Shown here: piece after piece, positions 2,127-55,320 of the stretch
Layout: every line of letters starts with the position of its first letter
How positions within the stretch are numbered: the first letter of the stretch is position 1
Source of the DNA: an uncultured Veillonellaceae bacterium
GTDB taxonomy: Bacteria; Bacillota; Negativicutes; UBA1444
Direction of reading: 5' to 3'
DNA length: 64,000 nucleotides
Assembly (NCBI GenBank): GCA_964638945.1
Contig: CAZXCC010000001.1
Location: 47,945-111,944 of the forward strand
Made by a program: the position numbers and the translations under genes
The notes under the pieces: model-generated
Databases searched by the model: none
Seen by the model: the letters and a program-made list of their open reading frames with translations, nothing else
What the model was told of the DNA's origin: nothing

Positions 2127-3725
2127 GTGGCTGATTTTCTGGAAACCCTGATCGAAGCGCTGCCTTTTATCGCACGCATTACAGGCGGATATGCGACAGT
2201 GACGGACAGGGACGGTGTCCGCATACGGACGTATGATTCCGAGGGGCAGGAAATAGTGGAGTGGCGGGGAACGGTCTTTGAGCTGGCGAGGGAAGTTGGT
2301 CAGAACGGCCAGGTCCGGATCGGGCCTTCCCAGATCATTGCCGATGCCGAGGCTTGGGCATTGCCGCTGGGTGAATATGTGATCGCCTCCAGCAATCTGG
2401 AAAGAGTGATGAGGGAGAAGGAGCTGCTTGAATCCTTGAAGTCGGCACTACCTTTTATTGCAAGGGTTGCCGGGGGGGAAGCCGTACTGTTCGACGAGGA
2501 AGGAAAACGCACTGCCAGTGTCGGATATGATGGGCAACCCAATACAAACTTTATCGGGCGAGTCAGTAAAGCTGCTCAAAAAGCCATGAAAACGGGTCGC
2601 CCGGTGATTGGGGAATCCATGTCGGCAAATGGTGCAATTGGTGTGAGGATTCCCATCACTCATAGTTTTGGTCTGGGGTTCAATAATGAGCATGGCGTGA
2701 TGCGGCAGCAGAAATTGATGGAGGAAGTAAAAAAATTTCAGTACGCACGCTATAATTTCACAGACATTGTCGGGAACAGCGAAGCGATTCAAAAAGTGAA
2801 AAGCATGGCCAGTTTTGTAGCAAATGGCATATCATCGATATTGATTCTGGGAGAAACCGGAACAGGAAAAGAGATGTTTGCCCAGTCCATCCATAATTGT
2901 AGCGAACGGCGCAGTAAACCTTTTATTGCGGTCAACTGCGGAGCTTTGCCGGCATCGATAATCGAAAGTTATCTGTTCGGTTATGTTGAGGGAGCGTTTA
3001 CGGGAGCCAAAAAGAGCGGCAGTCCGGGCGCTTTTGAGCAGGCAAACGGCGGAACCATTTTTCTCGACGAGCTTGGGGAAATGGATTTCAATTTACAGAG
3101 CAAATTGCTTAGAGTGCTGCAAGAACGGGAAGTAACGAGGATTGGCGGTTCAAAGCCGCTGCACATCGATGTACGGGTTATCGCTTCAACAAACCGTGAT
3201 TTGAGTGAAATGGTTACGGCGAACAAATTTCGCCAGGATCTATATTACAGGCTCAATGTTGTACAGCTGAAAATCCCGCCTCTGCGGGAACGGACCGAAG
3301 ATATTCCGGCTCTGGTCAAGGGAATGATTGACCGATTTAACAATATGCTTGGCAAATTTGTCGTGGGGATATCCGAAGAATGTATCGCCAAACTTTGTGA
3401 ACACAAATGGCCGGGCAATGTGCGGGAATTGCAGAATTGCGTCGAATATGCCATGAACATTATCGGCATCAATGATAGTGTTATCGAAGTGGAGCATTTG
3501 CCGCATAATATACAAAGTATCGTTCAAAACGGCAAAATTCAGACTGTCGGTACGTTGGCGGAAACGGTATTGCTGGCGGAAAAAGAGGCCATCCTAAAAG
3601 CGCTGGCATTCACCGGCCATGCGAAAAAGGAGACGGCCAGGCTCCTTGGCATCAGTACGACCACGCTATGGCGCAAAATGATTGAAACCGGCATTGAAAA
3701 TGCGCCTCCGCTTCCGGAAAAATGA
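2127..3725 (+). CDS. sigma-54-dependent transcriptional activator (NtrC-family EBP); N-terminus is two tandem copies of an uncharacterised roughly 95-aa sensory domain, then AAA+ sigma-54 interaction domain and C-terminal Fis-type HTH
   Basis: GETGTGKE Walker A, GAFTGA sigma-54 contact motif, C-terminal HTH; internal repeat ALPFIARITGG.. / ALPFIARVAGG..; GTG start with GAGGTG RBS. Confidence 0.85.
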   Translation: MADFLETLIEALPFIARITGGYATVTDRDGVRIRTYDSEGQEIVEWRGTVFELAREVGQNGQVRIGPSQIIADAEAWALPLGEYVIASSNLERVMREKELLESLKSALPFIARVAGGEAVLFDEEGKRTASVGYDGQPNTNFIGRVSKAAQKAMKTGRPVIGESMSANGAIGVRIPITHSFGLGFNNEHGVMRQQKLMEEVKKFQYARYNFTDIVGNSEAIQKVKSMASFVANGISSILILGETGTGKEMFAQSIHNCSERRSKPFIAVNCGALPASIIESYLFGYVEGAFTGAKKSGSPGAFEQANGGTIFLDELGEMDFNLQSKLLRVLQEREVTRIGGSKPLHIDVRVIASTNRDLSEMVTANKFRQDLYYRLNVVQLKIPPLRERTEDIPALVKGMIDRFNNMLGKFVVGISEECIAKLCEHKWPGNVRELQNCVEYAMNIIGINDSVIEVEHLPHNIQSIVQNGKIQTVGTLAETVLLAEKEAILKALAFTGHAKKETARLLGISTTTLWRKMIETGIENAPPLPEK

Positions 3726-3771: not shown

Positions 3772-4440
3772 GTGAAAGACAACAAGACTTCCCAATCAGC
3801 GGTGCTTTATGATGCCAATGTTCATAAAACAATTCCGCGGTACCATACTTTCCATGATGAGACGATTGAACTGATCCGAATTTTGAGACCGGCTCCGGCG
3901 GCATGGCTGGATACCGGCTGCGGTACAGGAACACTCATCGCAAAAGCAGCAGGTTGCTTTCCTGGAGTGAAATTTGTCGCAGCGGATCCGTCATCGGCGA
4001 TGCTGGAGCAGGCCAGGGAAAAGTTGGCCGGATTGGCGGTGGAATATGTGGAGGCCGGCACCGAGGCGTTTGCCGTGAAGAACAGATTTGATGTCATTAC
4101 TGCAATAATGTCGCACCACTACTTGAATTTCCCAGAGAGGGATACGGCAACGAAAAATTGCTTTGATGCACTGAACGAGGGGGGAGTGTATGTCACATTT
4201 GAAACCATACGGCCTTTTTCGGAACGCGGTACTGAAGTAGGGCTGCAAAGGTGGCGTACACATCAACTGTCAAACGGCAAAGCGCCTGAAGAAGTCGATA
4301 AGCATATCAGCCGTTATGGTATGGAATTATTGCCGATCTCGATTGATAATCATCTCGAATTGCTTCGCCGGGCAGGTTTTTCCACTGTGGAAATCTTGTG
4401 GGTATCTGGTTTACAGGCAGGGTTCTACGCTGTCAAATAG
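3772..4440 (+). CDS. class I SAM-dependent methyltransferase
   Basis: motif I LDTGCGTGTL; 222 aa. Confidence 0.7.
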   Translation: MKDNKTSQSAVLYDANVHKTIPRYHTFHDETIELIRILRPAPAAWLDTGCGTGTLIAKAAGCFPGVKFVAADPSSAMLEQAREKLAGLAVEYVEAGTEAFAVKNRFDVITAIMSHHYLNFPERDTATKNCFDALNEGGVYVTFETIRPFSERGTEVGLQRWRTHQLSNGKAPEEVDKHISRYGMELLPISIDNHLELLRRAGFSTVEILWVSGLQAGFYAVK

Positions 4441-4459: not shown

Positions 4460-4490
4460 TTGACAAAAAGACGGTACTCGTGATAATGTT
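4460..4490 (+). promoter_or_regulatory. possible sigma-A promoter (TTGACA, 16-17 nt, GATAAT with TG extension) followed by a GC hairpin at about 4510-4545
   Basis: pattern reading only. Confidence 0.3.
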
Positions 4491-4595
4491 CGAAATTATA
4501 ACAGTGGCAATGGAGCCGCCGCAAATGCGGTGGCTTTTGCTTTTTATTTTGCGAACCGATGGCGAAAATGTGCTGAGGGGAATTGTCTGATGCAT

Positions 4596-4611
4596 CGGCA
4601 CGATTCTTGCA
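4596..4611 (+). promoter_or_regulatory. sigma-54 (-24/-12) promoter CGGCACG-ATTC-TTGCA upstream of the soluble MCP-like gene
   Basis: GG at 4597-4598 and GC at 4609-4610 with canonical spacing; matches TGGCACG-N4-TTGCW except the first base. Confidence 0.6.
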
Positions 4612-4707
4612 ATAAATCTTGCTGAAACAAAATTTTGTAAAACGGCTACCGGAGATGGAGGCGATCTCCAATCTGGATTTTTTGAAAACAGGGGGGAAGT
4701 TGATACA

Positions 4708-5547
4708 ATGGCAACGTCGGAAGAAATTCTGGAAAGGTTGGTCCATGCACTACCGCTTATTCAGGGGGCTTTGCACGAAGATACAGGGGTTACTTTGACG
4801 AACCGGGAAAATTTTTTGTTCTACAAAGCAGGAAAAAATTTGGACCTAAAGGTTCCGCCCAATGCACAGGTAAAGCCGGGCAGCGGAGTGCACAGGGCCA
4901 TGCAGGAACGACGGCGCGTGGCGCTGCGCTTTGACAGCACGTTATATGGATTGCCTTACACATCTGTAGCGATTCCGGTTTATGATGAATCGCATGAAGT
5001 GATCGGAGCCATTGCCATTACTCAACCTGTGGAACTGCAGGAAAGCATCAAGCGGATGTCCGGCGGATTGTTGGACAATATCAGCGCTTTGGCTGCTACG
5101 AGCGAAGAGATTTCCGCCCAGACGGAAGAGATTGCGGCGTCCAGCCGTGTATTGACGGATATGGCGCATGAGTCACAAAAAAGAGCACAACAAACCGACC
5201 AAGTGTTGGGGTTGATTCGGAACATTGCCAGTCAGACAAATCTTTTGGGTTTGAATGCTGCTATTGAGGCAGCCCGTGTCGGGGAGCAAGGCCGCGGATT
5301 CGGCGTTGTTGCGGAGGAAATAAGAAAATTGGCTGGAACCAGCGCCCAGTCAATCAGCGAAGTGACTTCAATTATTGCAGCGATTCGTAAAGACAGCGAG
5401 GCCACTTACAGCCAGATGAATGAAATGCAGAGTGCAATCGGACAAATTGCCACTGCCGTTAGCCAAATTGCTGAAACAGTGCAAAAAATAACACAAAATG
5501 CATCGCAACTGGATAAGATTGCGGAAGCAATGAATGGGCAAGAATAG
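4708..5547 (+). CDS. soluble methyl-accepting chemotaxis protein-like transducer (no TM, no HAMP), N-terminal uncharacterised sensory domain shared with the sigma-54 activator; YfmS-like architecture
   Basis: MCP signalling core [34 protein letters not shown]; N-terminal about 110 aa alignable to 2127..3725 repeats and to 54187..55032. Confidence 0.8.
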
Positions 5548-5772
5548 TATTATTTCAAAAATGAAATGCGAAGGAATATTTTAAAGGAAATAAAGAATGC
5601 AAAAATAAGCTTTGGTTGATTCTTTTTCTGCAAAACTCGAGAATGAAGATTTGCTGCTGCAAATATGTGAGGGGCAAAAAGCAGGAATAATGCAGGTAGT
5701 GATGAAGAAGACCATTGTGATTATTGCTGTGTTTCTCTTTCCTCAGGGATAAATTCGGTGCGTTGCAATAAT

Positions 5773-5786
5773 GAAATGCGCATTTC
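5773..5786. promoter_or_regulatory. perfect 14-bp palindrome GAAATGCGCATTTC about 160 bp upstream of the sigma-54 promoter; candidate enhancer (UAS) for the sigma-54 activator; a half-site-like TGAAATGCGAAGG lies at about 5560
   Basis: read directly; position typical for EBP binding sites. Confidence 0.4.
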
Positions 5787-5933
5787 TGTTTTGAAATGAA
5801 AATGATAAGTTGACCGCTGAAAATTGATGAAAAAATAAGTGGAATTCCAACCTTGCAATACAATCATACGGCGGACGAATGGCAATGAAGCCTGGCAAGA
5901 GATCTTGCGGGCTTTTTTGTTTGGAAGGCATAT

Positions 5934-5949
5934 TGGCACGGCTCTTGCA
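5934..5949 (+). promoter_or_regulatory. sigma-54 promoter TGGCACG-GCTC-TTGCA, near-perfect consensus, immediately upstream of the RBS/start of the first nicotinate cluster gene
   Basis: GG 5935-5936, GC 5947-5948; exact match to TGGCACG-N4-TTGCW. Confidence 0.75.
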
Positions 5950-5976
5950 TTGGTCTATAAAACGGAGGTGTGCACG

Positions 5977-6450
5977 TTGAATGTTGAAATAACTTGTAGG
6001 ATTAATGGCAAAGAAATTAACATGACGGTTCGGCCTGAAATGCTGTTGGTGGATTTCCTGCGTGATGAACTTGGTTTGACAGGAACGAAGAGAGGCTGCG
6101 GGATCGGTGAATGTGGCGCTTGCACGGTCATAATGGATGGACGCACAGTGGCATCTTGTATTGTTCCTGCCGCTTCGATCGACGGTTCGGATATTTTAAC
6201 GGTGGAAGGGCTGTCTGACGGAGAAAAACTCCATGTCCTTCAGCAGGCTTTCATCGACCATGGCGCAGTACAGTGCGGTTTTTGCACACCTGGGATGCTC
6301 TTGTCGGCAAAGGCTTTATTGGACAAAAATCCAAAACCGACACGGGAAGAGATCCGAGTGGCCATCTCTGGCAATGCATGCCGCTGTACAGGCTATACCA
6401 AAATTGTTGATGCGGTAGAATCAGTGGCAAAACTGGGAGGTGACGTTTGA
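5977..6450 (+). CDS. ndhS: nicotinate dehydrogenase (xanthine dehydrogenase family) 2Fe-2S small subunit
   Basis: two 2Fe-2S motifs CGIGECGAC and CGFCTPG; TTG start 8 nt after GGAGGTG; the ATG at 5839 would include the sigma-54 promoter and is judged less likely. Confidence 0.75.
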   Translation: MNVEITCRINGKEINMTVRPEMLLVDFLRDELGLTGTKRGCGIGECGACTVIMDGRTVASCIVPAASIDGSDILTVEGLSDGEKLHVLQQAFIDHGAVQCGFCTPGMLLSAKALLDKNPKPTREEIRVAISGNACRCTGYTKIVDAVESVAKLGGDV

Positions 6451-7721
6451 TGAACAATGCCGGCATTGGCAGTTCGGTTTTGAAGTCGGATGCGCTTGCC
6501 AAGGTGACGGGGCAGGCGTTATTCGCTGCTGACATGAAACGTCCGGGCATGTTGTTTTGCAAAGTGGTTCGCAACGAAAGCAAAATCGCGCATGCCGTGA
6601 TCGAAGGGATAGATGTGGCGGAAGCAGCGGCAACTCCTGGGGTTGTGGCAGTTTTTACGGCAAAAGACATTCCTGGAACGAACGGCGTCGGCATCATCCT
6701 GAAGGATGAACCGGTGCTCGCGGGGGAAAAAGTCCGTCGCCATGGCGACGCATTGGCTCTTGTCGTGGCTGAAACAGAAGAGATAGCAATTGCAGCAGGC
6801 AAGAAGGTTCGTGCCACATTGAAAGAACTGCCGGCGTATTTTGATCCCATAGCTGCGATGGCTCCTGACGCAGTCAAGATTCACGGATCATCCAATGTGC
6901 TGACCCTGCGCAAGGTTCGCAAGGGGGATGTAGAGGCGGCTTTTGCTGCTTCAAAGGTGATCATTGAAAGACGGTACACTACGCAGACGATTGAGCATGC
7001 CTATATAGAACCGGAAGCGGGATTGGCCGAATACGACGGCAGAATGGTGACGGTTTGGGTTTCAACGCAGAACGCACATTTTGACCGCAAAGAAGTGGCT
7101 CGCAACCTGGGGCTGGGAGTACATCAGGTTCGAATCGTTCAGGCTGTCACCGGCGGCGGGTTTGGCGGCAAACTTGATATTTCGGTGCAATGTTATCTGG
7201 CCCTGGCAGCTTACAAAACCGGGCGCCCGGTGAAAATGGTCTGGCAACGGGAAGAATCCATGATTGCATCAGCCAAGCGGCATCCGTACCTGATCGATTA
7301 CAAGACAGGCGCCGATGCGGACGGCAGGTTGCTGGCCGTGAAAGCAAATATCATTGGCGACTCAGGTGCCTACGCGTCTTATGGGCCGGCTGTGCTGACA
7401 AGGGCCGCGGTTCATGCTACCGGTCCCTATGAAGTGCCCAATGTCCATGTGGACGCATATGCCGTATACACAAATAACCCCCAGGCCGGAGCCATGCGTG
7501 GCTTTGGCGTGCCGCAGATGGCTTTTGCGCATGAGACGCAGATGGATCTTCTGGCGGAAGAACTGGGCCTCTCCCCCTTCGAAGTTCGCAGGAGGAATGT
7601 ATTGCGTCCGGGGGGGACGACTGCGACGGGCCAAGTGCTGGAACATAGTGTGGGCATCGGAATGACGCTGGAACAAGCCTGTAAGGAAGCAGAAAAATTG
7701 TTCCGCACGGGGGTACTGTAA
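6450..7721 (+). CDS. ndhL: nicotinate dehydrogenase molybdopterin subunit, N-terminal half (NdhL-like)
   Basis: aldehyde oxidase/xanthine dehydrogenase a/b hammerhead region; ATGA overlap with ndhS stop. Confidence 0.75.
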   Translation: MNNAGIGSSVLKSDALAKVTGQALFAADMKRPGMLFCKVVRNESKIAHAVIEGIDVAEAAATPGVVAVFTAKDIPGTNGVGIILKDEPVLAGEKVRRHGDALALVVAETEEIAIAAGKKVRATLKELPAYFDPIAAMAPDAVKIHGSSNVLTLRKVRKGDVEAAFAASKVIIERRYTTQTIEHAYIEPEAGLAEYDGRMVTVWVSTQNAHFDRKEVARNLGLGVHQVRIVQAVTGGGFGGKLDISVQCYLALAAYKTGRPVKMVWQREESMIASAKRHPYLIDYKTGADADGRLLAVKANIIGDSGAYASYGPAVLTRAAVHATGPYEVPNVHVDAYAVYTNNPQAGAMRGFGVPQMAFAHETQMDLLAEELGLSPFEVRRRNVLRPGGTTATGQVLEHSVGIGMTLEQACKEAEKLFRTGVL

Positions 7722-8774
7722 ATGAAGAAACGTGGTACAGGAATCGGTTGCATGTGGTATGGCATCGGCAATACGGGGCTTCCCAATCCGGCAGCGGCGT
7801 TTGTCGAATGGCTGGATGACGGGACGGCCAATTTGCTCGTCGGATGCGCGGATATAGGACAGGGATCGGATACCGCACTTGCCCAGATTGTGGCGGAAGA
7901 GCTCGGCATCAGTGCTGAAAACGTCATGGTCACCTCGGCTGACACGATGGTCACCCCTGAAGGCGGCGCTACAAGCGCCAGCCGACAGACTTACATTTCC
8001 GGCAACGCAGCACGCCTGGCGGCCAAGGAAGCCAAGCAGGTGGCGATTGCGGAAGCGAAAGAGATGTTGAAAACAACCGGCAATGTTGATTTTTCCCGTG
8101 GGTTCGTCTTGGTAGACGGAAAACCGGGAGAGCTTTCTGTGAAAGAAGTATTGGGCAGCTGTCGCATGAAGGGAAAACTCACGCTGGGACACGGGTGGTT
8201 CAATCCGGCGACAACAGGACTGGATACTGCCACGGGTGTAGGTTCGCCTTACGGAACATACGCTTTTGCCACGCAGGTGGCTGAAGTGGAAGTGGATACG
8301 GAAACCGGAAAAGTCGAAGTTCTTCGCCTCGTAGCTTCCCATGACGTTGGAAAGGCCATCAATCCCCAACTGGTCCAGGCGCAGATCGAGGGTGGCAGTG
8401 TCATGGGGGTCGGCTATGCCTTACTTGAGGAGATTAACGTTTCTGGCGGCCGCATTACAAATCCCAACTTTGATGCGTATCTTTTGCCCACTGCACTGGA
8501 TACGCCTGAGATTTATTCGTTTATCGTCGAAGATCACGAACCCACCGGCCCTTTCGGGGCGAAAGGCGTCGGGGAACCTGCTCTGATTCCAACTGCGGCG
8601 GCGATTGCCAATGCCGTGTACGACGCAATCGGTGTCAGAATCTATTCCCTGCCGATTTCTCCGGAACGGGTGCTCCAGGCGCTGGCAGAGAAAAAGAATG
8701 AGCAAAAGCCTGGCAACTGCAGTGGACCGGTATATGCGATTTGTTCAATCGGTGTGGAAGAAAGCAAGCCCTAA
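7722..8774 (+). CDS. ndhM: nicotinate dehydrogenase molybdopterin subunit, C-terminal half (NdhM-like)
   Basis: xanthine dehydrogenase family Mo-binding C-terminal region; clean TAA-ATG junction with GGGGGT RBS, mirroring the split 50+37 kDa L/M subunits of the E. barkeri enzyme. Confidence 0.75.
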   Translation: MKKRGTGIGCMWYGIGNTGLPNPAAAFVEWLDDGTANLLVGCADIGQGSDTALAQIVAEELGISAENVMVTSADTMVTPEGGATSASRQTYISGNAARLAAKEAKQVAIAEAKEMLKTTGNVDFSRGFVLVDGKPGELSVKEVLGSCRMKGKLTLGHGWFNPATTGLDTATGVGSPYGTYAFATQVAEVEVDTETGKVEVLRLVASHDVGKAINPQLVQAQIEGGSVMGVGYALLEEINVSGGRITNPNFDAYLLPTALDTPEIYSFIVEDHEPTGPFGAKGVGEPALIPTAAAIANAVYDAIGVRIYSLPISPERVLQALAEKKNEQKPGNCSGPVYAICSIGVEESKP

Positions 8775-8822
8775 TATCCGGGAGGCAGATTCCCGGCAAT
8801 CATGATAAGGAGAGTGACACAA

Positions 8823-9995
8823 ATGGCAAACCTAGTAATTACCAACATCGGCACAATTGTTTCAGGGGACATCGATTCTCCGATTCTCCAGGGTAACACC
8901 ATCGTTATCAAAGACGGAAAAATTGATGCCGTGGGAAATGCGGAACTGGTAGACGCTCTCAAAAAAGAATCGGTCGAATTCAAAACCATTGACGCAGGTG
9001 GTATGACAGTGACCCCGGGTCTGATTGATTCGCATGTTCATCCGGTCATCGGCGACTATACACCGAGGCAAAAGATGTCGGATTTTATCGACAGTTCCAT
9101 TCATGGAGGCGTGACTTCGATGATCTCCGCAGGGGAATGTCATACGCCGGGCCGTCCGACGGATCCGGCCGGTGTAAAAGCTCTGGCCATTCTGGCGAAA
9201 AAATCATTCGCAAATCTTAAGCCGGGCGGTGTGAAAGTTCATGCCGGCTCCGTGATTCTTGAAAAAGGGCTGACGGAAGCTGATTTTGCTGAGATGGCGG
9301 CAGCGGGTGTCAATATCGTCGGCGAGGTGGGCCTGGGTTCGGTAAAGAAGCCTGAAGATGCTGCGCCCATGGTGGCCTGGGCCAAGAAGCACAATATGAA
9401 AGTCATGATGCACACGGGCGGCACTTCGATTCCAGGTAGCTCCACAGTATCTGCAGATGACGTGATCAAAACGGACCCGGACGTAGTATCTCACATCAAT
9501 GGCGGCCCTACGGCGGTTTCATTGAAAGAGGTCGACAGGTTGCTTGACGAGACGCAGTTTGCATTGGAGATCGTACAGTGCGGCAACCCGAAAGTGGCTG
9601 ACTATGTGGCGCGCAAAGCGGCTGCCAAGAACCAGATGCATCGGATTATTTTCGGCAACGATGCTCCTTCCGGCACCGGCGTGATTCCTCTGGGGATTCT
9701 TCGAAACATCTGCCAGATTGCCAGCATATCTGAGATTCCTGCAGAAAAAGCCATTGCGATGGCTTCGGGAAACACTGCCCGTACTTATGGATTGAACACC
9801 GGAGTGATTGCGCCGGGAAAAGACGCGGATCTTGTGATTTTGGACACACCGATGGGCTCGGTCGGCAAGAATGCGCTGGAAGCGATTGAAGCCGGAGATT
9901 TGCCTGGAGTCGCGTTGGTACTTGTTGATGGAGTGATCAAGGTAAACAAGAGCCGCAATACTCCGCCGACAGTGGGAAAAGTAACGGGTGCCTAA
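8823..9995 (+). CDS. ena: enamidase-like amidohydrolase (1,4,5,6-tetrahydro-6-oxonicotinate amidohydrolase)
   Basis: amidohydrolase metal motif GLIDSHVHP; 390 aa, matching the about 386-aa E. barkeri enamidase; cluster context. Confidence 0.7.
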   Translation: MANLVITNIGTIVSGDIDSPILQGNTIVIKDGKIDAVGNAELVDALKKESVEFKTIDAGGMTVTPGLIDSHVHPVIGDYTPRQKMSDFIDSSIHGGVTSMISAGECHTPGRPTDPAGVKALAILAKKSFANLKPGGVKVHAGSVILEKGLTEADFAEMAAAGVNIVGEVGLGSVKKPEDAAPMVAWAKKHNMKVMMHTGGTSIPGSSTVSADDVIKTDPDVVSHINGGPTAVSLKEVDRLLDETQFALEIVQCGNPKVADYVARKAAAKNQMHRIIFGNDAPSGTGVIPLGILRNICQIASISEIPAEKAIAMASGNTARTYGLNTGVIAPGKDADLVILDTPMGSVGKNALEAIEAGDLPGVALVLVDGVIKVNKSRNTPPTVGKVTGA

Positions 9996-10016
9996 GGAAA
10001 CGGGAGGTTTGGAACA

Positions 10017-11525
10017 ATGATCATTGTCAAGAAGGAACTCTGCAAGGCCTGCGGCTTATGTGTCAAGAACTGTCCGGCAAGCGCGGTCAAAGTCATAGAC
10101 AAATTGGCCGTGGTGCAGGAGAATTGCGTCAGTTGCGGCGTCTGCGTCCGTGTCTGCCCTTTTCAGGCAATCATGCGCGAAGTGGAAATTGCTGCAGGCG
10201 CAGTTTCTTGCCGTTCATGCCCGGTCCAATGCGAAATCAAGGCAGGGTTTGAAGGTGCATGCAAACGCTATAGCAACATCAACGGAAAATTGGTGCGAAA
10301 CCGTGAACTGGTACTGGAAAATACCCGGTCTCAGGTGCCGGACCGGACAATCCCGGATAAGCCTCTGATTACTGCCGTAGGTGCGGGTACAGAGTATCCC
10401 TGCTGCCGTCCGGCCCCTCATATTGTCGGTGAGACGATCGACGGCATCGATGTGGTGACCGTAGTGACGGAAGCTCCGCTCAGTTACAGCGGTATCAAGG
10501 TAAAGATTGACGCCAACCGCCACATCGGCGAAGAAGGCGCGAAGATATTCAGGGACGGTGCGCTCGTCGGCATGGTGGACACCGAAGAGTATGGATCAAA
10601 GATGATTTACATCGGCGGAGCGAATATTCTGAGCGGGAAGAATGGATTTGCCGCGGCCCGGACCATTGTCGAACTGGCGAATGAAGAACGAGTGACACTG
10701 CAGGTCGAAAAAGGAAGCAAGCTGGAACTGCAGGTCGGTCACGCACCAATCATTGACGGTGTTGCCGAAAAGAAAATGCGTGTTGGTTGCGGCAGTGCAA
10801 CCGTCGGTATGTTTGCACGTATCATGAGTCAGGCAGTGGATGAAGCCATCGTGCTGGACCATCATGTTATTGGACTTCTGTCGGAACACCGGGCGGGTGA
10901 AGAGGTTGGAATGCGCTGGAGCGGCGTTGTTCCAAACGGCAGAAAAAGTACAAGGGGTAGATATTTCGGGGAGCATGGGCATGGTTGGGGCGGCACTCAT
11001 ATCGAAAAGCCTCTGGATGCAGTCAAGTCTGTAGATATGAGCATCGCCAGACAGGGCATGAAAATATTGGTTACCGAAACTACCGGGCAAAAAGGCGCAT
11101 TGCTGGAAGTGCAAGCGGATGGCAGTGTGCGCGAGATTCCGATGACTCCGGATGCTCAGGCCGCTGTCAACATGATTGTCGACAATTGTGAGGAAGCCAG
11201 GGTATCTGCCGTTTATGTCGGCGGAACCGGCGGCAGTGCGAGAGCAGGCGTGACGACCTATCCCATCAAGCTTTCACGCGCCGTGCATGCAGGGGAAGCA
11301 AAGTTGACAATCGGCGGGGCCATGGCCTACATCCTTCCGGGAGGCGGCATAAATTTTCTGGTGGATGTGGAAAAAGTGGAACCGAAGGCTTTTACCTGGG
11401 TTCCGACTCCTGCAACAGTAGCGCCGGTTGAATATACGATGACCCGCCGCAAATATGAAGAAATCGGTGGACATGTCGAGTCCATCAAACCCCTCTCCAC
11501 GCTCAAAAAGGCGAACAAAAAATGA
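10017..11525 (+). CDS. hnr: 6-hydroxynicotinate reductase-like protein with N-terminal 2x[4Fe-4S] ferredoxin domain
   Basis: CKACGLCVKNCP and CVSCGVCVRVCP motifs plus additional Cys clusters; position and size consistent with Hnr of the E. barkeri pathway. Confidence 0.6.
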   Translation: MIIVKKELCKACGLCVKNCPASAVKVIDKLAVVQENCVSCGVCVRVCPFQAIMREVEIAAGAVSCRSCPVQCEIKAGFEGACKRYSNINGKLVRNRELVLENTRSQVPDRTIPDKPLITAVGAGTEYPCCRPAPHIVGETIDGIDVVTVVTEAPLSYSGIKVKIDANRHIGEEGAKIFRDGALVGMVDTEEYGSKMIYIGGANILSGKNGFAAARTIVELANEERVTLQVEKGSKLELQVGHAPIIDGVAEKKMRVGCGSATVGMFARIMSQAVDEAIVLDHHVIGLLSEHRAGEEVGMRWSGVVPNGRKSTRGRYFGEHGHGWGGTHIEKPLDAVKSVDMSIARQGMKILVTETTGQKGALLEVQADGSVREIPMTPDAQAAVNMIVDNCEEARVSAVYVGGTGGSARAGVTTYPIKLSRAVHAGEAKLTIGGAMAYILPGGGINFLVDVEKVEPKAFTWVPTPATVAPVEYTMTRRKYEEIGGHVESIKPLSTLKKANKK

Positions 11526-12355
11526 TCAGGGAATTGGGGCCGGGCAAGGTTGCGCTTGATTTTGGTCCTACCCAGATGAATATTCATGTTTCCGGCGACA
11601 ATGCCGGTACCGGCATTGCGAAAGAAGCAGCGGATTACGCAATAAAGCTGGTTACGGAACTGGCGGGTTTTAAAACGATTGCAGCCAGGCCGCAAAGCGA
11701 AATCGGCACGCTGGAGGATCTGCCTGTCGTGCTCCAGAGAATGATCGAGTCTGTCAGAAAAACCGGGGATACGGATCTGACCCCCATGGCTGCAGTTGCC
11801 GGAACTCTATCGGACATGACTGCAGACTGGCTTTTTGCCAGAGGCGTCTCGAAGGTTATCGTCAACAATGGCGGCGATATTGCGATAAGACTCTCGGGAG
11901 AACAACGAGCCACGGTTGGCATTGCACCGGCCTTGGGCATGCCGCCGACCCACGTTCTGCATATCGGTGCAGCCGATGGCATCGGCGGTGTGACAACAAG
12001 CGGTTCAGGCGGACGAAGTTTCACCAAAGGAATTGCCACCGCCGCCACCGTTGCGGCAAAAACGGCGTCGATAGCCGACGCCTGCGCCACAAGCATCGGC
12101 AACGCAACCTTTTCTCCCCATCCATCCATCCGCATGGCTAGAGCGGAAGAAATCGATCCATTGACTGACATCGCAGGGCACTGGGTGGTTCGGGACGTGG
12201 GAGAACTGCCGCAGGAAACGGTTCAGGCAGCTCTTGAAAACGGATGGATGAGGGCAAAAAGCTATTTGGACAGAGGGATCATCAAAGGATGCGTTATCTT
12301 TATCGGACAAGCTGGAGTGGTGCTGCCGGAAGGGCTAGTGACTCCCTTGCCGTAA
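11522..12355 (+). CDS. conserved hypothetical protein, Gly/Ala-rich, in nicotinate cluster (possible Hnr accessory)
   Basis: ORF 277 aa translationally coupled (ATGA) to hnr; no motif recognised. Confidence 0.45.
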   Translation: MIRELGPGKVALDFGPTQMNIHVSGDNAGTGIAKEAADYAIKLVTELAGFKTIAARPQSEIGTLEDLPVVLQRMIESVRKTGDTDLTPMAAVAGTLSDMTADWLFARGVSKVIVNNGGDIAIRLSGEQRATVGIAPALGMPPTHVLHIGAADGIGGVTTSGSGGRSFTKGIATAATVAAKTASIADACATSIGNATFSPHPSIRMARAEEIDPLTDIAGHWVVRDVGELPQETVQAALENGWMRAKSYLDRGIIKGCVIFIGQAGVVLPEGLVTPLP

Positions 12356-12376
12356 AAATTAAGAGGAGGGTATATT

Positions 12377-12961
12377 ATGGAACTGGAAATTCGTAAGATT
12401 GTAACTGTTGTGGAAGAAACCTGCAAGGAAGCCGGACGCAAACTGGAAAAACCGACGCGCAAAGCTGCGGCGATGGCTGTTGTTGCCAATCCGTATGCGG
12501 GGCAATATGTGGAAGACCTGAATCCGCTGATTGATGCCTGCCTGCCGCTCGGAGAGCTCTTGACCAAACGTGCAGTGGAAGCATTGGGCATTGCGCCTGA
12601 AAAAGTAGAAAGCTATGGCAAGGCGGCTATCGTAGGCATAAATGGCGAACTGGAGCATGCCGCGGCGCTGCTGCATCCCAAACTCGGGACACCGATCCGC
12701 GATAATGTCGGCGGAGGAAAGGCAATTCTGCCTTCAACCAAAAAAGTCGGTGGACCAGGAACGGCGATCGATGTATCACTCGGATTCAAAAACGCCGCAT
12801 ACGTGCGGACTCACTTCGATGCAATGGAAGTACGGATTGCCGATGCTCCACGGGACAATGAAATTGTCCTTATCGTTGCTGTGACTGATTCGGGCCGTCC
12901 GCTGGCGCGTGTGGGCGGATTGACTGTGGATCAGGTCAAAGGCGAAGACGGATTGCGCTAA
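12377..12961 (+). CDS. amino-acid-synthesis (AA_synth/DUF1185) family protein, function unknown
   Basis: N-terminal MELEIRKIVTVVEE... and length about 190 aa typical of that family (from memory). Confidence 0.5.
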   Translation: MELEIRKIVTVVEETCKEAGRKLEKPTRKAAAMAVVANPYAGQYVEDLNPLIDACLPLGELLTKRAVEALGIAPEKVESYGKAAIVGINGELEHAAALLHPKLGTPIRDNVGGGKAILPSTKKVGGPGTAIDVSLGFKNAAYVRTHFDAMEVRIADAPRDNEIVLIVAVTDSGRPLARVGGLTVDQVKGEDGLR

Positions 12962-12974
12962 ACAAAAAATATAG

Positions 12975-13007
12975 TTGCTAGAACAAGGAAATTCCTTGTT
13001 CTAGCAA
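12975..13007. other. perfect 15-bp stem / 3-nt loop hairpin (TTGCTAGAACAAGGA aat TCCTTGTTCTAGCAA) between cluster genes; U-run lies on the minus-strand side
   Basis: base pairing verified by eye, 15/15 pairs. Confidence 0.6.
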
Positions 13008-13024
13008 AATTGGGGGGAAGAAAG

Positions 13025-13912
13025 GTGCGTATCGGATTTATCGGTATCGGAGCCATGGGAAAACCGATGGCGCTGAACCTTCTAAAGGCTGGCCATGAAC
13101 TGTATGTTTTTGATGTCGTGGCAGCTGCGGTGGCAGACATGGTTGCTCAGGGGGGGCAGGCATGCACGTCGCCCAAAGAGCTTGCGCAGAAGACGGAAGC
13201 AGTTATTACAATGCTGCCCAATGCCAAGATTGTGGAAAGTACACTGACAGGTGAAAACGGGCTTTTAGCCGGCTCACGTCCCGGACAGGTTTTCATCGAC
13301 ATGAGCAGTGTCTCCGCTGGCAGTACGAAACTGATGGCCAAACTCGCCGGTGAAAAAGGGGTCGGCTATGTGGATGCACCGGTAAGCGGCGGGGTGGCTG
13401 GCGCTACGGCTGGAACACTGACCATCATGGTTGGGGGAAGTGTGGATGACGTTGCGAAAGTACAACCCATACTGCAGGCTATGGGGAAAAACATCCACCA
13501 TGTCGGAGAAGTGGGTGCGGGTGATTCCATCAAGGTCGTCAACAATCTGCTGCTCGGGATCAATATGGCAGCGGTTGCTGAAGCGTTGGTGCTCGGAGTG
13601 AAATCCGGCCTGTCGCCCCAGGTCATGCTTGATATCATCAAGGGGAGCTCCGGCCGAAGTTATGCGTTGGAGGCGAAGACTCCGGGCTTTATCCTGAAAA
13701 ATAATTTTGCAGCCGGATTTGCCATCGACCTGCAGTACAAGGATCTGGAACTGGCGGCCGAAACGGCAAAAAGTCTGGGAATGCCGCTTCCGCTGGGATC
13801 CATGGCGCAACAGATTTTTGAAATGGCCAGGGCCAAGGGACTGGGGCGCGAGGATATTTCAGCAGTGATCAAGGTGTGGGAAGAACTGGTCGGCGTGCAA
13901 GTGAGGGAATAG
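13025..13912 (+). CDS. hgd: 2-(hydroxymethyl)glutarate dehydrogenase-like (3-hydroxyisobutyrate dehydrogenase family, NAD-binding)
   Basis: GFIGIGAMGKPMALNL Rossmann motif; about 296 aa; cluster context. Confidence 0.75.
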   Translation: MRIGFIGIGAMGKPMALNLLKAGHELYVFDVVAAAVADMVAQGGQACTSPKELAQKTEAVITMLPNAKIVESTLTGENGLLAGSRPGQVFIDMSSVSAGSTKLMAKLAGEKGVGYVDAPVSGGVAGATAGTLTIMVGGSVDDVAKVQPILQAMGKNIHHVGEVGAGDSIKVVNNLLLGINMAAVAEALVLGVKSGLSPQVMLDIIKGSSGRSYALEAKTPGFILKNNFAAGFAIDLQYKDLELAAETAKSLGMPLPLGSMAQQIFEMARAKGLGREDISAVIKVWEELVGVQVRE

Positions 13913-13919
13913 AAGGTAG

Positions 13920-15344: not shown

Positions 15345-15355
15345 GAGGAACGGTC

Positions 15356-16564: not shown

Positions 16565-17055
16565 AGACAATCAAGGGTCGTGTATGGGTTTTTGACGACA
16601 ATGTGGATACCGATCAGATACTGCCTGGCTATGCAATGGCCGAGGCTGCAGCTTCCCTGGGACGTTTTGCCATGGCTGGCAGCAAGATTCCGGATTTCTC
16701 CGGCAAGGTTCAAGCCGGTGACATTATTGTCGCAGGCAAAAACTTCGGCTGCGGTTCCAGTCGGGAGCAGGCGCCGGTTGCGCTGAAACTGGCAGGAGTC
16801 AGTCTGCTCATTGCTCCCTCTTTTGCCCGGATTTTTCGCCGGAATTCCATCAATATCGGATTGCCGGTGATGTTGGGAGATATTCGGGAGGAAGTCAAAA
16901 CAGGAGATATTATCGAAGTGGATATTGAAAGCGGCGTTATTGTCGCTGCGGAGAGAAAACTGTCAGCTCAACCTCTGGCGCCCAATGTGCTGGCAACGGT
17001 GCGGGCCGGCGGCCTGATCAACCGTGTCCGCCAAGAACTGGGTATTGCAAACTGA
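16561..17055 (+). CDS. dmdB: dimethylmaleate hydratase small subunit (LeuD-like)
   Basis: 164 aa LeuD-like swivel domain; ATGA overlap with dmdA. Confidence 0.75.
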
Positions 17056-17080
17056 ACGATATACTGCAGGAGGAACCAAA

Positions 17081-20061: not shown

Positions 20062-20083
20062 TTCATACGGGGAGTGAAAAGAC

Positions 20084-21520: not shown

Positions 21521-21521
21521 C

Positions 21522-22394: not shown

Positions 22395-22413
22395 CCCTGG
22401 AAGGAGGCTGCAT

Positions 22414-23295: not shown

Positions 23296-23348
23296 GCTGA
23301 AGATAGAGACATATTTCCATAGTTTTCTCTAATATAGTTTTTGGACAT

Positions 23349-23362
23349 CATTCGGCCGAATG
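23349..23362. promoter_or_regulatory. perfect 14-bp palindrome CATTCGGCCGAATG upstream of MFS transporter gene; candidate operator
   Basis: read directly. Confidence 0.4.
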
Positions 23363-30574: not shown

Positions 30575-32062
30575 GTGGATTTGGAGATGTATGATAAAAA
30601 GACTCGAGAAATTCTGACATCGGGTGATTCGGAACGATTGAAGAATTTTGCTATAGAACTGTTAGGCGGAGTGAACTTACAGCAGGTTCGATGGCAAGGT
30701 TTGCTTGATGTTTTGGAAGAGGCGGTTTGCGTGATTGACGACATGGAAAATGTCATAGGGTGGAACAGAAGAGCGGAAGCTCTTTATGGGATTTCTGCGA
30801 TGGAGATTATCGGACAGCCCATTGAAAAATTTTTTTCGAATTTGCTTTTGACACGGGCCATGAAAGACGGAAAGGTGCTGCGTGAAACCTATCATAAACC
30901 TTGTCCAGGAACCCATGTTCTGATCAATGCGCAACCGATCTATTTTCGTGGAAGAGTTGCGGGGGGGGTATCCGCCGAACGCGAAATTACGGAATTGGTA
31001 AATCTGAACCAGAAACTCTCGCAAGCCAGTCAGGAAGTCCAGACTTTGCGGGAGGAGATTGACAAGATACAAGCCAAAACTGACGAATTCTCCGCTATTT
31101 ATGGACATAGTCCCCTGATTGCCGAAGCTGTCCGTGTGGCACGACGCGTGGCAACCGCCAATGTGCCGATTCTGCTTCGCGGCGAAAGTGGAAGCGGGAA
31201 GGAACTGTTTGCCCGGGCCATCCATGATGCAAGCCATCGCAATGGAAGCTTTGTTGCCATAAACTGCGGCGCAATTCCTGCCAATTTGTTTGAAAGCGAA
31301 TTGTTCGGATATGAATCAGGAGCCTTTACCGGCGCCGACCGCAAGGGGAAATTCGGATTTTTGGAACGGTCCCACGGAGGAACGCTGTTTTTGGATGAAA
31401 TCGGTGAAATGCCGAAGGATATGCAGGTCAAATTGCTCAGAGTTTTGCAGGAACAAATTTTTTACAGAGTTGGCAGCACTAAGCCTGTTCATGTGGATTT
31501 GCGTGTCATTGCTGCGACACATCGCGACCTGGAAAGAATGATAAACCGGGGTGAATTTCGTGAAGACCTATATTACCGGATGAATGTTGTAACGATTCCA
31601 TTGCCCTCGCTGCGGGAAAGGAGGGAAGATATTCCAGAATTAGTGCACCGTGGATTGCGGTATTTTGGAAACCTTCATGCAAAAGTGATCCAACGCATCG
31701 ATCCGGCGGTTATGGCAGCGCTGCTGGATTATGAATGGCCGGGCAATGTCAGGGAATTATTCAATGTATTGGAAAGAATGGTCATTCTTTGTGATGGAGA
31801 CACGCTGAACCCGGAAAATCTTCCGATCAACCTGACGGACGAAAATAGCGCAAAAACCAAATATATGGCATTGTCAGCAGGTGGTTTGAATGCAATGACT
31901 GAAGATATGGAACGCAACCTGATCCAGCGTGTGCTTGAGGAGTCCAATAATAACAAAGCTATTGCGGCGCAAAAACTGGGAATTCCGCGAAGCACCCTTT
32001 ACTATAAAATGAATAGCTTGCGTATTGGAGTCAAGGACCTGACGCAAGTGTCGGAAAACTGA
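30575..32062 (+). CDS. sigma-54-dependent transcriptional activator with N-terminal PAS domain (RocR-like)
   Basis: GESGSGKE, GAFTGA, C-terminal HTH; GTG start after GGGAGGGA. Confidence 0.85.
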   Translation: MDLEMYDKKTREILTSGDSERLKNFAIELLGGVNLQQVRWQGLLDVLEEAVCVIDDMENVIGWNRRAEALYGISAMEIIGQPIEKFFSNLLLTRAMKDGKVLRETYHKPCPGTHVLINAQPIYFRGRVAGGVSAEREITELVNLNQKLSQASQEVQTLREEIDKIQAKTDEFSAIYGHSPLIAEAVRVARRVATANVPILLRGESGSGKELFARAIHDASHRNGSFVAINCGAIPANLFESELFGYESGAFTGADRKGKFGFLERSHGGTLFLDEIGEMPKDMQVKLLRVLQEQIFYRVGSTKPVHVDLRVIAATHRDLERMINRGEFREDLYYRMNVVTIPLPSLRERREDIPELVHRGLRYFGNLHAKVIQRIDPAVMAALLDYEWPGNVRELFNVLERMVILCDGDTLNPENLPINLTDENSAKTKYMALSAGGLNAMTEDMERNLIQRVLEESNNNKAIAAQKLGIPRSTLYYKMNSLRIGVKDLTQVSEN

Positions 32063-32148: not shown

Positions 32149-32154
32149 TTTGTT

Positions 32155-32170
32155 TGGCATGGTTTGTGCA
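32155..32170 (+). promoter_or_regulatory. sigma-54 promoter TGGCAT-GGTTT-GTGCA about 30 nt upstream of the dehydrogenase operon start
   Basis: GG 32156-32157, GC 32168-32169 with canonical spacing; -12 element GTGCA has one mismatch from TTGCA. Confidence 0.55.
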
Positions 32171-32201
32171 ATTTAGTTTGAAAGGGTTGGAGGTGTGTAA
32201 G

Positions 32202-52797: not shown

Positions 52798-54248
52798 AAG
52801 CGAAGGGTATCGGGCTGCTGGCCGCTGCTTTTCTTGTAAATTCATTTTATAACACTACATTGCCTTTACACTTTGATGAAGCCTACTATTGGGTCTGGTC
52901 CCAGCATCTTCAGTGGTCCTATTTTGATCATCCGCCTTTGATTGCATATCTCATTCATCTGGCAACGCTCTTTGGCCATGCGGAATGGCAGATCCGCCTG
53001 GTGCCGCTGCTCTGCTCGGCAATGACAGGCTGGGGGATTTGGCGCTTGGGCAATGAAATGTTCGGTTCAGAGGTGGGGCTAAAAGCGTTGGTGATTTTCC
53101 TTTTGTCCCCTCTGGCACAGATTGGCTTTGCACTGGCTACACCGGATTCGCCGCTGATTCTTGGCTGGACTGCGGCGATTTTTTTCACCTACAAGGCGGT
53201 ATTTGAGCAAAAAAAAGCCTTTTACATTGCTGCCGGATTCGCTGCCGGATTTTCCCTGCTGGCAAAGTATACAGCCGTTCTGCTATTGCCGGGGTTATTG
53301 CTATTTTTTGTTTTTTCTGCCCGGCGGGACGAATTGAAGAGTCCGTGGCCATATGCGGGAATTCTTGCAGCTCTTTTGATTTTTTTTCCGGTGCTGCTTT
53401 GGAATGCAGGGCACGACTGGGTTTCGTTCCGTTTTCAGCTTGCGCACGGGCTCGCCAATGAACGGGTATTGAATCTGAAAACATTAGGGGAATTTATCGC
53501 AGTACAGGCGCTTGCGTTGAACCCGGTATTTTTCCTTTCCTTTCTTTGGTTTGGAGCGAAACGGTTTCGGGAGGCTTTCGCAGAGGATCGGCAGGCCTTT
53601 CTTTTGTGGCCGTGTCTGTTTGTTCTGGGTTTCTTTGGGTATGCGTCGTTGTTCAAAAGAGTGGAAGGCAACTGGGCTGCTCCGGCTTATGTAACCGGAT
53701 CGATCTTGCTTGCCTATTGGCTGGATGCTTCAAGACAGAAATGGCTTTATAAAACAGGCATCGTCATGGGGCTTGCCATGACGATGCTTTTGAAAGTGCC
53801 GGAACTATTTGATTTTTTGCCTAAACAAATTGTGATGAAAAGACAGGTGCTGGGGTATGATGAAATGTTCCGTTCGGCAGGAAGCCTCATAGCGGATTCT
53901 GAAATGGTACTGGCTGCCGATTATAAACTTGCATCCCTTGCATGGTATTATCTGCCCGGAAACCCGGTGGTGCATGTTGTGACCCAATCGCGGCCGTCGC
54001 AGTATGACTATTGGAGGGGAACGCTTCAGAAGGCAGGCGGGAAAAACGCGGTATTTTTCGGTTCGACCGGGCAAGAGGCAGAGTTGGCCCTCCTGTTTGA
54101 AAAAGTGATCCCCGAGGAATCTCTGTCGTATACGGACCGTTATATTTCCCGGGAAATCAAAGTATATAAATGCTTTACCCTGAAACCTATTCCTGGTTTC
54201 GGGTCAGCGAGTCGGCCATCGAATTCAGAGACCGCGCCATTTCATTGA
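52794..54248 (+). CDS. GT-C fold membrane glycosyltransferase (GT39/ArnT/PMT-like)
   Basis: multi-TM N-terminal region with DE motif FDEAYYW near the first loop. Confidence 0.7.
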
Positions 54249-55032
54249 CTTCCTGAACTGATCCGGCTACCTGGGTAATAGCCTGGGCGATCTGCGGCAT
54301 TACTTCGTCGATGTGCCGGGATTGCTCGTAATTTTTTCGACTGTCATCCCGAATCGTCTGCAAAGTCGATTCTATTTTTTTGATGGATTCCCCGGTGGAG
54401 GCAGCTAATTTGCGTATCTCTTCGGCAACAACACCAAATCCACGTCCCTGCTCGCCAACCCTGGCTGCCTCGATCGCTGCGTTCAGGCCCAGCATGTTGG
54501 TTTGCCCGGCTACGGCTTTAATCAGCCCGATGACCTGATCGGTTTCCTGCAAACGGCCCTGAGATTCGGCAGCGGCCACTGACATGGCCCGACTGACTGC
54601 GCTGACTTCCTGGGTTTGCGCAGAGATTTCTTCGGATGTGCTTGCAAGCAGACTGGTATTGTCTGAAAGCTTTGCCGCCATTTCTTTCAATAAATCCTGC
54701 TGCTCCACGGATTCGATGATGACTGAGCCACCGATGACCTTTCCGGAAGCATCGTGAATCGGTACGGCGGTCGCAATATACGGCAGGCCGAATGTTGCCT
54801 TGTCGCCGCGAACTATGACTCGCCGATTCTCGTTCATGCACCTGTGGACCGCAGTACCGGTTTTAATGGGCGCGCCGGAGGAAATTTTCAGGTCCAGATT
54901 CCGTCCCGGCTTATAGAGCAGGTATTTTTCGCGATCAGTGACGGCTACGCCGATATCGCCTGAGAACATGCTCCCCAGCAGAGGCATAACATGGAGAAAT
55001 TTTTCCAGAATATCATTGTCACTGTCAGACAT
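54187..55032 (-). CDS. second soluble MCP-like transducer with the same N-terminal sensory domain as 4708..5547 and the sigma-54 activator
   Basis: MCP core [37 protein letters not shown]; N-terminal region alignable to 4708..5547. Confidence 0.8.
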
Positions 55033-55101
55033 TAAAACATAGCCCTCCTTCTTGAAATCGAAATCGACAGGCGAACTTTCTTGTCATATAAATAAAAAGA
55101 A

Positions 55102-55117
55102 AGCAAAAACTATGCCA
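55102..55117 (-). promoter_or_regulatory. sigma-54 promoter on the minus strand (reads TGGCAT-AGTTT-TTGCT) upstream of the second soluble MCP-like gene
   Basis: reverse complement of AGCAAAAACTATGCCA; canonical GG-N10-GC spacing. Confidence 0.55.
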
Positions 55118-55320
55118 AAGATATGGTTTGTGAAACAATACGTATTGAAATAAATTTGCAGAGGAAGAAAGACAACAGTCAAGGAAAGACTCATCCATTA
55201 CGTCACAATTGACATTCGGATGCAAAGTCGTCATTTCCTGCAAAAAGAAAGAAAAAATGTTGAGGAGACTAGACAGTGTACAGGAAGAAGGGCAAAGGAC
55301 TAGACAGGTCGGCAGGCTTA

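Follow-up and report, generated by a model that had tools for sequence, protein, structure and literature searches.

Likely sigma-54 promoters precede two soluble YfmS-type receptor genes in a Negativicute, one of them beside a nicotinate fermentation cluster

Chemoreceptor genes are normally dependent on sigma-D or sigma-A, as is the case in Bacillus and E. coli; the receptor genes of B. subtilis depend on sigma-D. Whether some soluble receptors are instead placed under sigma-54 is a question raised by a 64,000-nucleotide stretch of DNA (the window) from an uncultured Veillonellaceae bacterium (GTDB lineage Bacteria; Bacillota; Negativicutes; UBA1444), which corresponds to positions 47,945 to 111,944 of the forward strand of contig CAZXCC010000001.1 (GenBank assembly GCA_964638945.1). 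The window encodes two soluble proteins resembling methyl-accepting chemotaxis proteins (MCPs), here termed MCP-like 1 and MCP-like 2, and a -24/-12 motif of the sigma-54 type lies upstream of each gene. Judged from sequence, both motifs are likely to be genuine sigma-54-dependent promoters, each serving a YfmS-type receptor gene that is monocistronic or first in its unit, with gene 1 as a member of a nicotinate regulon. An initial annotation of the window had credited both genes with sigma-54 promoters of their own, and this claim is borne out by comparison: all 4 retrieved gene-1 orthologues, and 12 of the 13 for gene 2, keep a promoter of this type.

Both proteins have the architecture of a soluble, YfmS-like chemoreceptor, consisting of about 280 aa with an N-terminal cytoplasmic sensor, an MCP domain and no transmembrane segment. 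The MCP signalling domain (PF00015) occupies the C-terminal 150-170 residues (E 9e-30 for gene 1 and 3e-25 for gene 2) and is minimal, at about 168 aa or ~24 heptads. The tip of its hairpin, where CheA and CheW bind, is identical in the two paralogues and almost unchanged across the family. No Pfam model matches the N-terminal 105-120 residues of either protein. The AlphaFold2 (AF2) model consists of a globular alpha/beta domain and a long helix, with no hydrophobic helix (predicted local distance difference test score, pLDDT, 89). The two proteins are 50% identical across 273 residues. Their closest named relatives belong to the Negativicutes, namely Anaeroselena agilis (75% identity) and Sporomusa species; several homologues are named "putative sensory transducer protein YfmS" by NCBI, and one NCBI protein (P0067) is identical to MCP-like 2. 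Genomes were scanned for further members with an N-terminal alignment of 7 sequences. No che genes are present in the window.

Sigma-54 promoters were sought on both strands of the window (128 kb) with a position weight matrix (PWM), and the background was estimated from 300 first-order Markov (Markov-1) simulations. Four matches score at least 17.5, compared with 0.11 expected and a simulation maximum of 2, and both of the sites singled out by the initial annotation are among them and thus stand above background; the fifth-ranked match in the window scores 14.9. All four (Table 1) are intergenic and oriented toward a gene starting no more than 100 nt away. Their targets are, in descending order of score, the operon for nicotinate dehydrogenase (ndh), MCP-like gene 2, an operon that follows the gene for a second enhancer-binding protein (EBP2) and MCP-like gene 1. 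Exact matches to TTGGCAYN5TTGCW are found twice in the window (5933 and 55102; 0.07 expected), and the loose core GGC-N7-TTGC is also enriched (33 observed vs 15.9 expected). In the window and all retrieved loci taken together, 33 matches score at least 15.8; 18 of these lie immediately upstream of an MCP-like gene, 4 precede a two-gene unit ending in an MCP-like gene and 4 precede ndh operons. The sigma-54 system appears to be in use in this region, which encodes two enhancer-binding proteins (EBPs) and has equally strong promoters ahead of both the ndh operon and the one that follows EBP2. Neither a sigma-D-type motif nor an Rfam family was detected in the window. A CCGATAA sequence does precede a transmembrane MCP gene (48524), but it is not spaced as sigma-D requires.

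The first site, at 4596-4611 (+), reads CGGCACGATTCTTGCA and is found where the initial annotation had placed it. Its geometry is the correct GG-N10-GC, with GG at 4597-4598, GC at 4609-4610 and exactly 10 nt between them, and its final base lies 96 nt before the ATG at 4708. It departs from the extended consensus TTGGCAY-N5-TTGCW by one mismatch. Orthologous loci were retrieved from A. agilis (L001) and from metagenome assemblies (L002-L004; 79-88% protein identity), and all four have a -24/-12 element 48-98 nt before the start codon, with scores of 16.0-18.9 (TTGGCACGATTATTGCGT, TAGGCATGCTTCTTGCAT, TAGGCACGGTTCTTGCAA and TTGGCATAATTCTTGCAA). This element is the best match in L001, and in L002-L004 only the ndh promoter outscores it. 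When the five intergenic regions are aligned (alignment A1), the invariant columns are mostly those of GGCA..TT.TTGC and of the stem of an upstream terminator; apart from the terminator, the flanking intergenic DNA is unalignable. The base at -26 differs among the loci (C, T or A), and the GG and GC are invariant.

The terminator-like hairpin at 4512-4545 lies 50 nt before the sigma-54 element. It is kept in L001-L003 with base changes that preserve pairing, and L004 has a different hairpin in the same place. Because such a hairpin stands directly upstream of the gene-1 promoter, gene 1 would need a promoter of its own. The same order, a terminator and then a -24/-12 element, recurs in the gene-1 orthologues and after EBP2. 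A further feature of this interval (4460-4545, +), also kept in L001-L003, is a sigma-70-like promoter (TTGACA-N16/17-GATAAT) with, within ~25 nt, a box TGGCAATGGAGCC and the terminator hairpin. A second copy of the box, TGGCAATGAAGCC, together with a hairpin and T-run (5880-5920, +), precedes the ndh promoter in all loci, and the box is found nowhere else in the window. It might represent a tiny small RNA, an attenuator or a protein-binding site.

The second site (55117-55102, -) reads TGGCATAGTTTTTGCT and likewise has the GG-N10-GC geometry. The coordinates and geometry originally given for it stand, and only the distance to the gene requires correction: the site ends 69 nt before the ATG at 55032, about 70 nt rather than about 60. 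It has no mismatches to TTGGCAY-N5-TTGCW, for which 0.07 matches are expected per window, and exactly matches the Clostridiales consensus TTGGCATNNNNNTTGCT (quoted in PMC6615313), the host here being a Negativicute. Unlike site 1, site 2 is convincing on its own as a candidate promoter. Upstream DNA was available for 13 distinct orthologues, including 3 close loci from a metagenome scan, and 12 of them (L005-L007, L014, L019-L022, L024 and L026-L028; 71-84% identity) carry the element at a distance of 58-104 nt from the start codon. In L020-L028, the loci for which rank was computed, it is the top match of its locus. In the P0173 lineage (78% identical; gene at 4001 in L015/L016), the 400-nt upstream region is GC-rich and has no sigma-54 motif, a case that by its sequence appears to be an example of promoter turnover within the clade.

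The intergenic region of gene 2 spans 359 nt and is shared with a divergent NMT1-type ABC-transporter gene, which has its own sigma-70-like promoter at 55321-55349; gene 2 adjoins an ABC/Tct transporter cluster. A PWM match at 55452-55469 (+) was considered as a promoter of the ABC-transporter gene and rejected, since it lies inside the coding region of a lipoprotein signal peptide.

Among more distant paralogues, the MCP-like gene can be the second of a two-gene unit. In A. agilis L018 and in L029, it follows a gene for an AP-endonuclease-2-fold protein with an upstream motif (15.8 and 16.6, respectively), and in two Sporomusa genomes (L033 and L034) it follows a 466-aa open reading frame (ORF) with upstream motifs scoring 20.3 and 21.3.

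The placement of gene 1 in a nicotinate regulon derives from its neighborhood. A run of + strand genes at 5978-23295, the ndh operon starting at ~5978, encodes a 2Fe-2S subunit, a split molybdopterin pair (424 + 350 aa), an amidohydrolase and a 502-aa Fe-S protein; ApbE-like, AA_synth, 3-hydroxyisobutyrate-dehydrogenase-like and serine-dehydratase-alpha-like proteins and an aconitase-like large/small pair; and a 634-aa B12-binding protein, a PrpF-family isomerase, a MutL-like protein, a member of the phosphoenolpyruvate (PEP)-mutase/isocitrate-lyase (ICL) family and the FAD-binding subunit of a molybdo-dehydrogenase. A gene for a major facilitator superfamily (MFS) transporter follows, so that the whole set extends over 5978-24806 (+). 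All domain types of the Eubacterium barkeri-type cluster are present in this single run, and by domain content the set is assigned to anaerobic nicotinate fermentation of that type. Putative roles include NdhS, split NdhL/NdhM, NdhF, an enamidase-like amidohydrolase, an Fe-S reductase, a B12 mutase, a MutL-like reactivase, an aconitase-like dehydratase pair and an ICL-family lyase. The other enzymes of the cluster presumably belong to the same pathway. The four-subunit NdhS/F/M/L composition of the dehydrogenase (PMC10331938) and the enamidase step of nicotinate fermentation (PMC9304392) have been described.

On its other side, gene 1 is in conserved synteny with genes for an EBP bearing the GAFTGA motif (EBP1; AF2 model pLDDT 96.6) and for a class I S-adenosylmethionine (SAM) methyltransferase that is not of the CheR type and has no specific NCBIfam match. 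The window and L001 have the order EBP, methyltransferase, MCP-like gene. L002 and L003 have a further MCP-like gene between EBP and methyltransferase (EBP, MCP-like gene, methyltransferase, MCP-like gene), and L004 reads MCP-like gene, methyltransferase, EBP. Through these three gene orders, the trio stays beside the ndh operon. The extra MCP-like copy of L002 (6001-6840) and L003 (4273-5112) is absent from the window organism. Only 1-6 nt separate it from the EBP stop codon, and it overlaps or directly adjoins the gene for the methyltransferase. The arrangement resembles translational coupling, and the copy has no promoter of its own.

The initial annotation had gone further in stating that the two MCP-like proteins share a sensor with an EBP. 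This does not hold at the level of sequence, as no homology is detectable and only a GAF/PAS-like fold class is held in common. BLASTP of the MCP-like N-terminus against that of EBP1 gave nothing significant, and a hidden Markov model (HMM) of 23 MCP-like N-termini, searched against every ORF in the window and loci, found no EBP. Profile-profile comparison with hhalign returned probabilities of 4% and 2.5% over 27-29 columns, a stretch limited to the first helix and strand. A phmmer search of 1.84 billion cluster representatives with the EBP1 N-terminus yielded 52 matches, none of the ~280-aa length of the MCP-like proteins; judged by length alone, most are either EBP-sized (about 520-545 aa) or shorter fragments. 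The predicted structures do have the same fold and topology. The MCP-like sensor is a single module (helix, two strands, helix, three strands), and the AF2 model of EBP1 has two such modules in tandem. Structural matches include the effector domains of the IclR family, KdgR, TtgV, the N-terminal domain of DhaR, SpoVT and WalK, at 10-17% sequence identity. However, the sensors differ from the IclR effector-binding domain and the GAF-like N-terminal domain of DhaR/AcoR in that no Pfam model matches either the MCP-like or the EBP1 N-terminus. As modelled, the two sensors thus belong to a common GAF/PAS-like fold class rather than to a demonstrable common domain family, and this resemblance probably explains the AcoR or IclR COG labels that JGI gives to some homologues.

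The N-terminus of EBP1 (encoded at 2127-2750, +) itself represents a rare family, with the 52 representatives noted above. A word-indexed homologue search with it gave 8 matches, mostly fragments. Two large proteins, P0266 (997 aa) and P0276 (807 aa), match EBP1 residues 15-50 in 8 and 6 separate stretches, respectively, which suggests a repeat protein built from the helix-strand unit of EBP1.

Under the reading favored here, the sigma-54 holoenzyme would occupy the -24 GG and -12 GC as a closed complex, and transcription would start ~12 nt downstream only once a metabolite-activated AAA+ EBP had remodelled this complex. The product would be a cytoplasmic receptor in which a small GAF/PAS-like ligand-binding domain is fused to a minimal MCP signalling hairpin. 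Gene 1 would most likely be induced together with the nicotinate pathway, providing an intracellular sensor made only during the import and fermentation of nicotinate. Its ligand would most plausibly be nicotinate itself or a compound from early in the pathway, taken up through the MFS transporter that the cluster encodes, and the conserved hairpin tip would couple the receptor to CheA/CheW. Gene 2 would follow the same logic with a different activator.

Which activator serves each promoter is a separate matter. The initial annotation had the EBP, or a paralogue of it, co-inducing its chemosensory partners, and this cannot be upheld in that form: EBP1-type motifs occur upstream of the ndh promoter only, and gene 2 has other repeats and no EBP nearby. 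In each of the 5 loci, the ndh promoter is preceded at -100 to -440 by sites of the TTKCAAWAMWGMAAT type, which are likely, by their sequence and position, to be the EBP1 enhancer. The nearest copy to the gene-1 promoter lies just after the gene-1 stop codon, 0.9-1.0 kb downstream of the promoter (~1.7 kb in L004). FleQ is a documented case of activation from downstream enhancers (Jyot et al. 2002, as cited in PMC8125075), so co-activation of gene 1 by EBP1 is possible; conserved synteny argues for it, and the chances that EBP1 acts at the gene-1 promoter seem evenly balanced. At gene 2, (T/C)GTCTA direct repeats are present 100-205 nt upstream of the -24 element in all 13 regions (24 observed vs 2.9 expected). 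These repeats are unlike the EBP1 motif, so gene 2 is probably controlled by a regulator other than EBP1. The repeats are a candidate enhancer but might just as well serve the divergent ABC-transporter gene as an operator.

Several observations weigh against the proposal that both motifs are sigma-54 promoters and that gene 1 is a member of the nicotinate regulon. Site 1 carries C at -26, and its pattern alone is within chance for 64 kb, so further evidence is needed and conservation decides. The PWM itself, modelled on published sigma-54 promoter compilations, has approximate frequencies. The best score in the P0173 lineage is 4.2, and the distant paralogues L030, L032, L036 and L037 have no motif; sigma-54 control would therefore be specific to certain clades. 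In none of the 5 loci do the 350 nt preceding the gene-1 promoter contain an EBP1-type site, the nearest being 0.9-1.2 kb downstream, and a k-mer search for 9-mers common to the surroundings of these five promoters turned up no positional element except the promoter. Additionally, rpoN does not lie within the 64 kb of the window, and a sigma-70-like promoter upstream of the terminator (4460-4487; 11/12 positions) could contribute to gene 1 by read-through.

If a consensus this short and degenerate had been matched by chance, the genes would be expressed from sigma-A or sigma-D promoters or by read-through. Site 1 is indeed one of 5 matches with at most one mismatch, compared with 2.35 expected, and besides the promoter at 4460-4487 there are sigma-70-like matches at 4682-4709 (10/12) and, weakly, at 55369-55342 (-), upstream of gene 2. 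However, a terminator separates the former promoter from gene 1, the match at 4682 was rejected because it overlaps the ribosome-binding site (RBS) and start codon, and there is no sigma-D motif. Moreover, the element is at the same place in 4/4 and 12/13 orthologues despite divergent surroundings, and the top four PWM matches are all intergenic and correctly oriented. Coincidence is thus very improbable as an explanation. The same low standing is given to the idea that the gene-1 promoter is the main promoter of a whole unit of MCP-like gene and ndh rather than being gene-specific. It draws on A. agilis (L001), where motifs before ndh are weak (12.1-12.4) and that before the MCP-like gene scores 18.7, but in the window and L002-L004 ndh has a stronger promoter of its own (21.5-22.3), with enhancer-like sites and a hairpin with a T-run, and in L004 the EBP gene stands between the MCP-like unit and ndh.

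A different objection accepts the promoters and concerns the proteins, which may not be chemotaxis receptors at all: MCP-like protein, non-CheR methyltransferase and EBP would form a signalling module, with the MCP-like protein as co-sensor, anti-activator or adaptation device for the nicotinate operon. The three genes remain together in three orders, the extra copy in L002 and L003 follows the EBP stop codon almost directly, the signalling domain is minimal at ~168 aa and the window is without che genes, all of which agree with such a module. However, the nearly unchanged CheA/CheW-binding tip argues for coupling to an array or kinase, neither an EBP nor a methyltransferase is encoded near gene 2 or near many of the paralogues, and the methyltransferase may be a mere pathway enzyme. 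On balance this alternative is unlikely, though it is given somewhat more weight than chance or a shared ndh promoter. There is a similarly small chance that the trio is a new kind of signalling module, in which an MCP-type coiled-coil with a GAF/PAS-like sensor feeds or adapts sigma-54 transcription of a fermentation pathway, or couples the pathway to taxis via a dedicated methyltransferase; such a module would differ from a chemoreceptor of the usual kind whose co-regulation is incidental. The reading preferred here remains that of two soluble receptors under sigma-54 promoters of their own.

Table 1. Features of the window discussed in the text, in order of position.
Feature	Coordinates	Strand	Sequence, score or basis
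EBP1, sigma-54 enhancer-binding protein	2127..3725	+	Two tandem small sensor modules, AAA+ with GAFTGA, HTH_8; Pfam, translation, synteny
Class I SAM methyltransferase (non-CheR)	3772..4440	+	Pfam; adjoins EBP and MCP-like gene in all orthologous loci
Intrinsic-terminator-like hairpin and T-run	4512..4545	+	Divides EBP-methyltransferase unit from gene-1 promoter
Probable sigma-54 (-24/-12) promoter of MCP-like gene 1	4595..4612	+	TCGGCACGATTCTTGCAA; PWM 17.7, window rank 4
MCP-like gene 1	4708..5547	+	Soluble, 279 aa; N-terminal GAF/PAS-like domain of ~105 aa and short MCP signalling hairpin of ~24 heptads
Candidate EBP1 enhancer sites	5552..5796	+	Half-site 5552-5570, palindrome 5763-5796 (TTGCAATAATGAAATGCG / CGCATTTCTGTTTTGAAA); motif TTKCAAWAMWGMAAT
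Predicted sigma-54 promoter of nicotinate dehydrogenase/fermentation operon	5933..5950	+	TTGGCACGGCTCTTGCAT; PWM 21.5, best in window; exact consensus match
EBP2	30575..32062	+	Sigma54_activat domain; PAS, AAA+ and helix-turn-helix (HTH); best NCBIfam match PrdR, below cut-off
Sigma-54 motif after EBP2	32154..32171	+	TTGGCATGGTTTGTGCAA; PWM 17.8; preceded by terminator-like hairpin
MCP-like gene 2	54187..55032	-	Soluble, 281 aa; 50% identical to gene 1
Probable sigma-54 promoter of MCP-like gene 2	55101..55118	-	TTGGCATAGTTTTTGCTT; PWM 20.2, window rank 2
Two exact direct copies of CTGTCTAGTC	55267..55307	-	31 nt apart, about 150-190 nt upstream of gene-2 -24 element

Elsewhere in the window, the operon after EBP2 encodes a pyridine-nucleotide-disulphide oxidoreductase, a ferredoxin-like protein, a DAO-family oxidase and an aldehyde dehydrogenase. 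A 996-aa protein of unusual architecture (25729-28719, +) combines PPDK_N (PEP-utilising, ATP-grasp), a weak receiver-like region and DUF5752. A 955-aa ORF at 39386-42253 (+) has no Pfam match at E up to 0.001, and just downstream of it lies the gene for a 972-aa SBP_bac_3-GAF-GGDEF-EAL protein (42330-45248).

The promoters are of the ordinary sigma-54 class, and chemoreceptors linked to a catabolic pathway are already known. Among the latter, NahY, NbaY, McpT and NtdY use sigma-70-type pathway regulators. As in the present case, their genes lie in or beside the degradation genes for one compound, which suggests pathway-specific taxis (PMC6600141, PMC13149774). However, these are transmembrane receptors of aerobic Proteobacteria and mostly plasmid-borne, whereas gene 1 encodes a cytoplasmic minimal receptor (~24 heptads) with a GAF/PAS-like sensor, has its own predicted sigma-54 promoter and lies beside an anaerobic nicotinate cluster. 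B. subtilis YfmS (PMC7542364), to which the MCP-like proteins are likened by architecture and by the names of homologues, is of the same size (~280 aa), has no membrane segments and has a short MCP signalling domain.

The closest parallel for the promoters themselves is provided by the catabolic sigma-54 regulons of Clostridia/Firmicutes (Nie et al. 2019, PMC6615313), which have the same -24/-12 consensus and spacing and an EBP gene beside the target operon. Those regulons, reconstructed in 57 Clostridiales genomes with TTGGCATNNNNNTTGCT, have amino-acid or organic-acid fermentation genes as targets, and the main text of that report names no chemotaxis or MCP genes; here, soluble chemoreceptor-like genes are included as well, and the host is a Negativicute. 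In other bacteria, Proteobacteria among them, sigma-54 has been linked to motility and chemotaxis genes (PMC11704786). Control of the sigma-54/FleQ type in Proteobacteria (PMC11704786, PMC8125075) belongs to a flagellar hierarchy, whereas the context here is metabolic, with no flagellar genes nearby. Literature searches returned no description of sigma-54 promoters on YfmS-like genes. What appears to be new is the combination of a minimal soluble receptor of the YfmS type with its own sigma-54 promoter, kept in a Sporomusaceae clade and with one copy in an anaerobic nicotinate regulon. The cluster itself also places a putative sigma-54-controlled nicotinate fermentation pathway outside E. barkeri, in a Negativicute.

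The MCP-like genes are probably switched on by nutrient-specific activators and not together with flagellar genes. If so, some Negativicutes would make certain cytoplasmic chemoreceptors only while one particular sigma-54 activator is switched on, and these receptors would belong to substrate-specific catabolic regulons rather than to the flagellar regulon, with nicotinate as the predicted substrate for gene 1. This would extend the range of sigma-54 targets in Firmicutes-type bacteria beyond enzymes and transporters. It would also suggest a ligand to test for a family of orphan receptors whose close homologues number in the hundreds, many being multiple paralogues inside single Sporomusaceae genomes.

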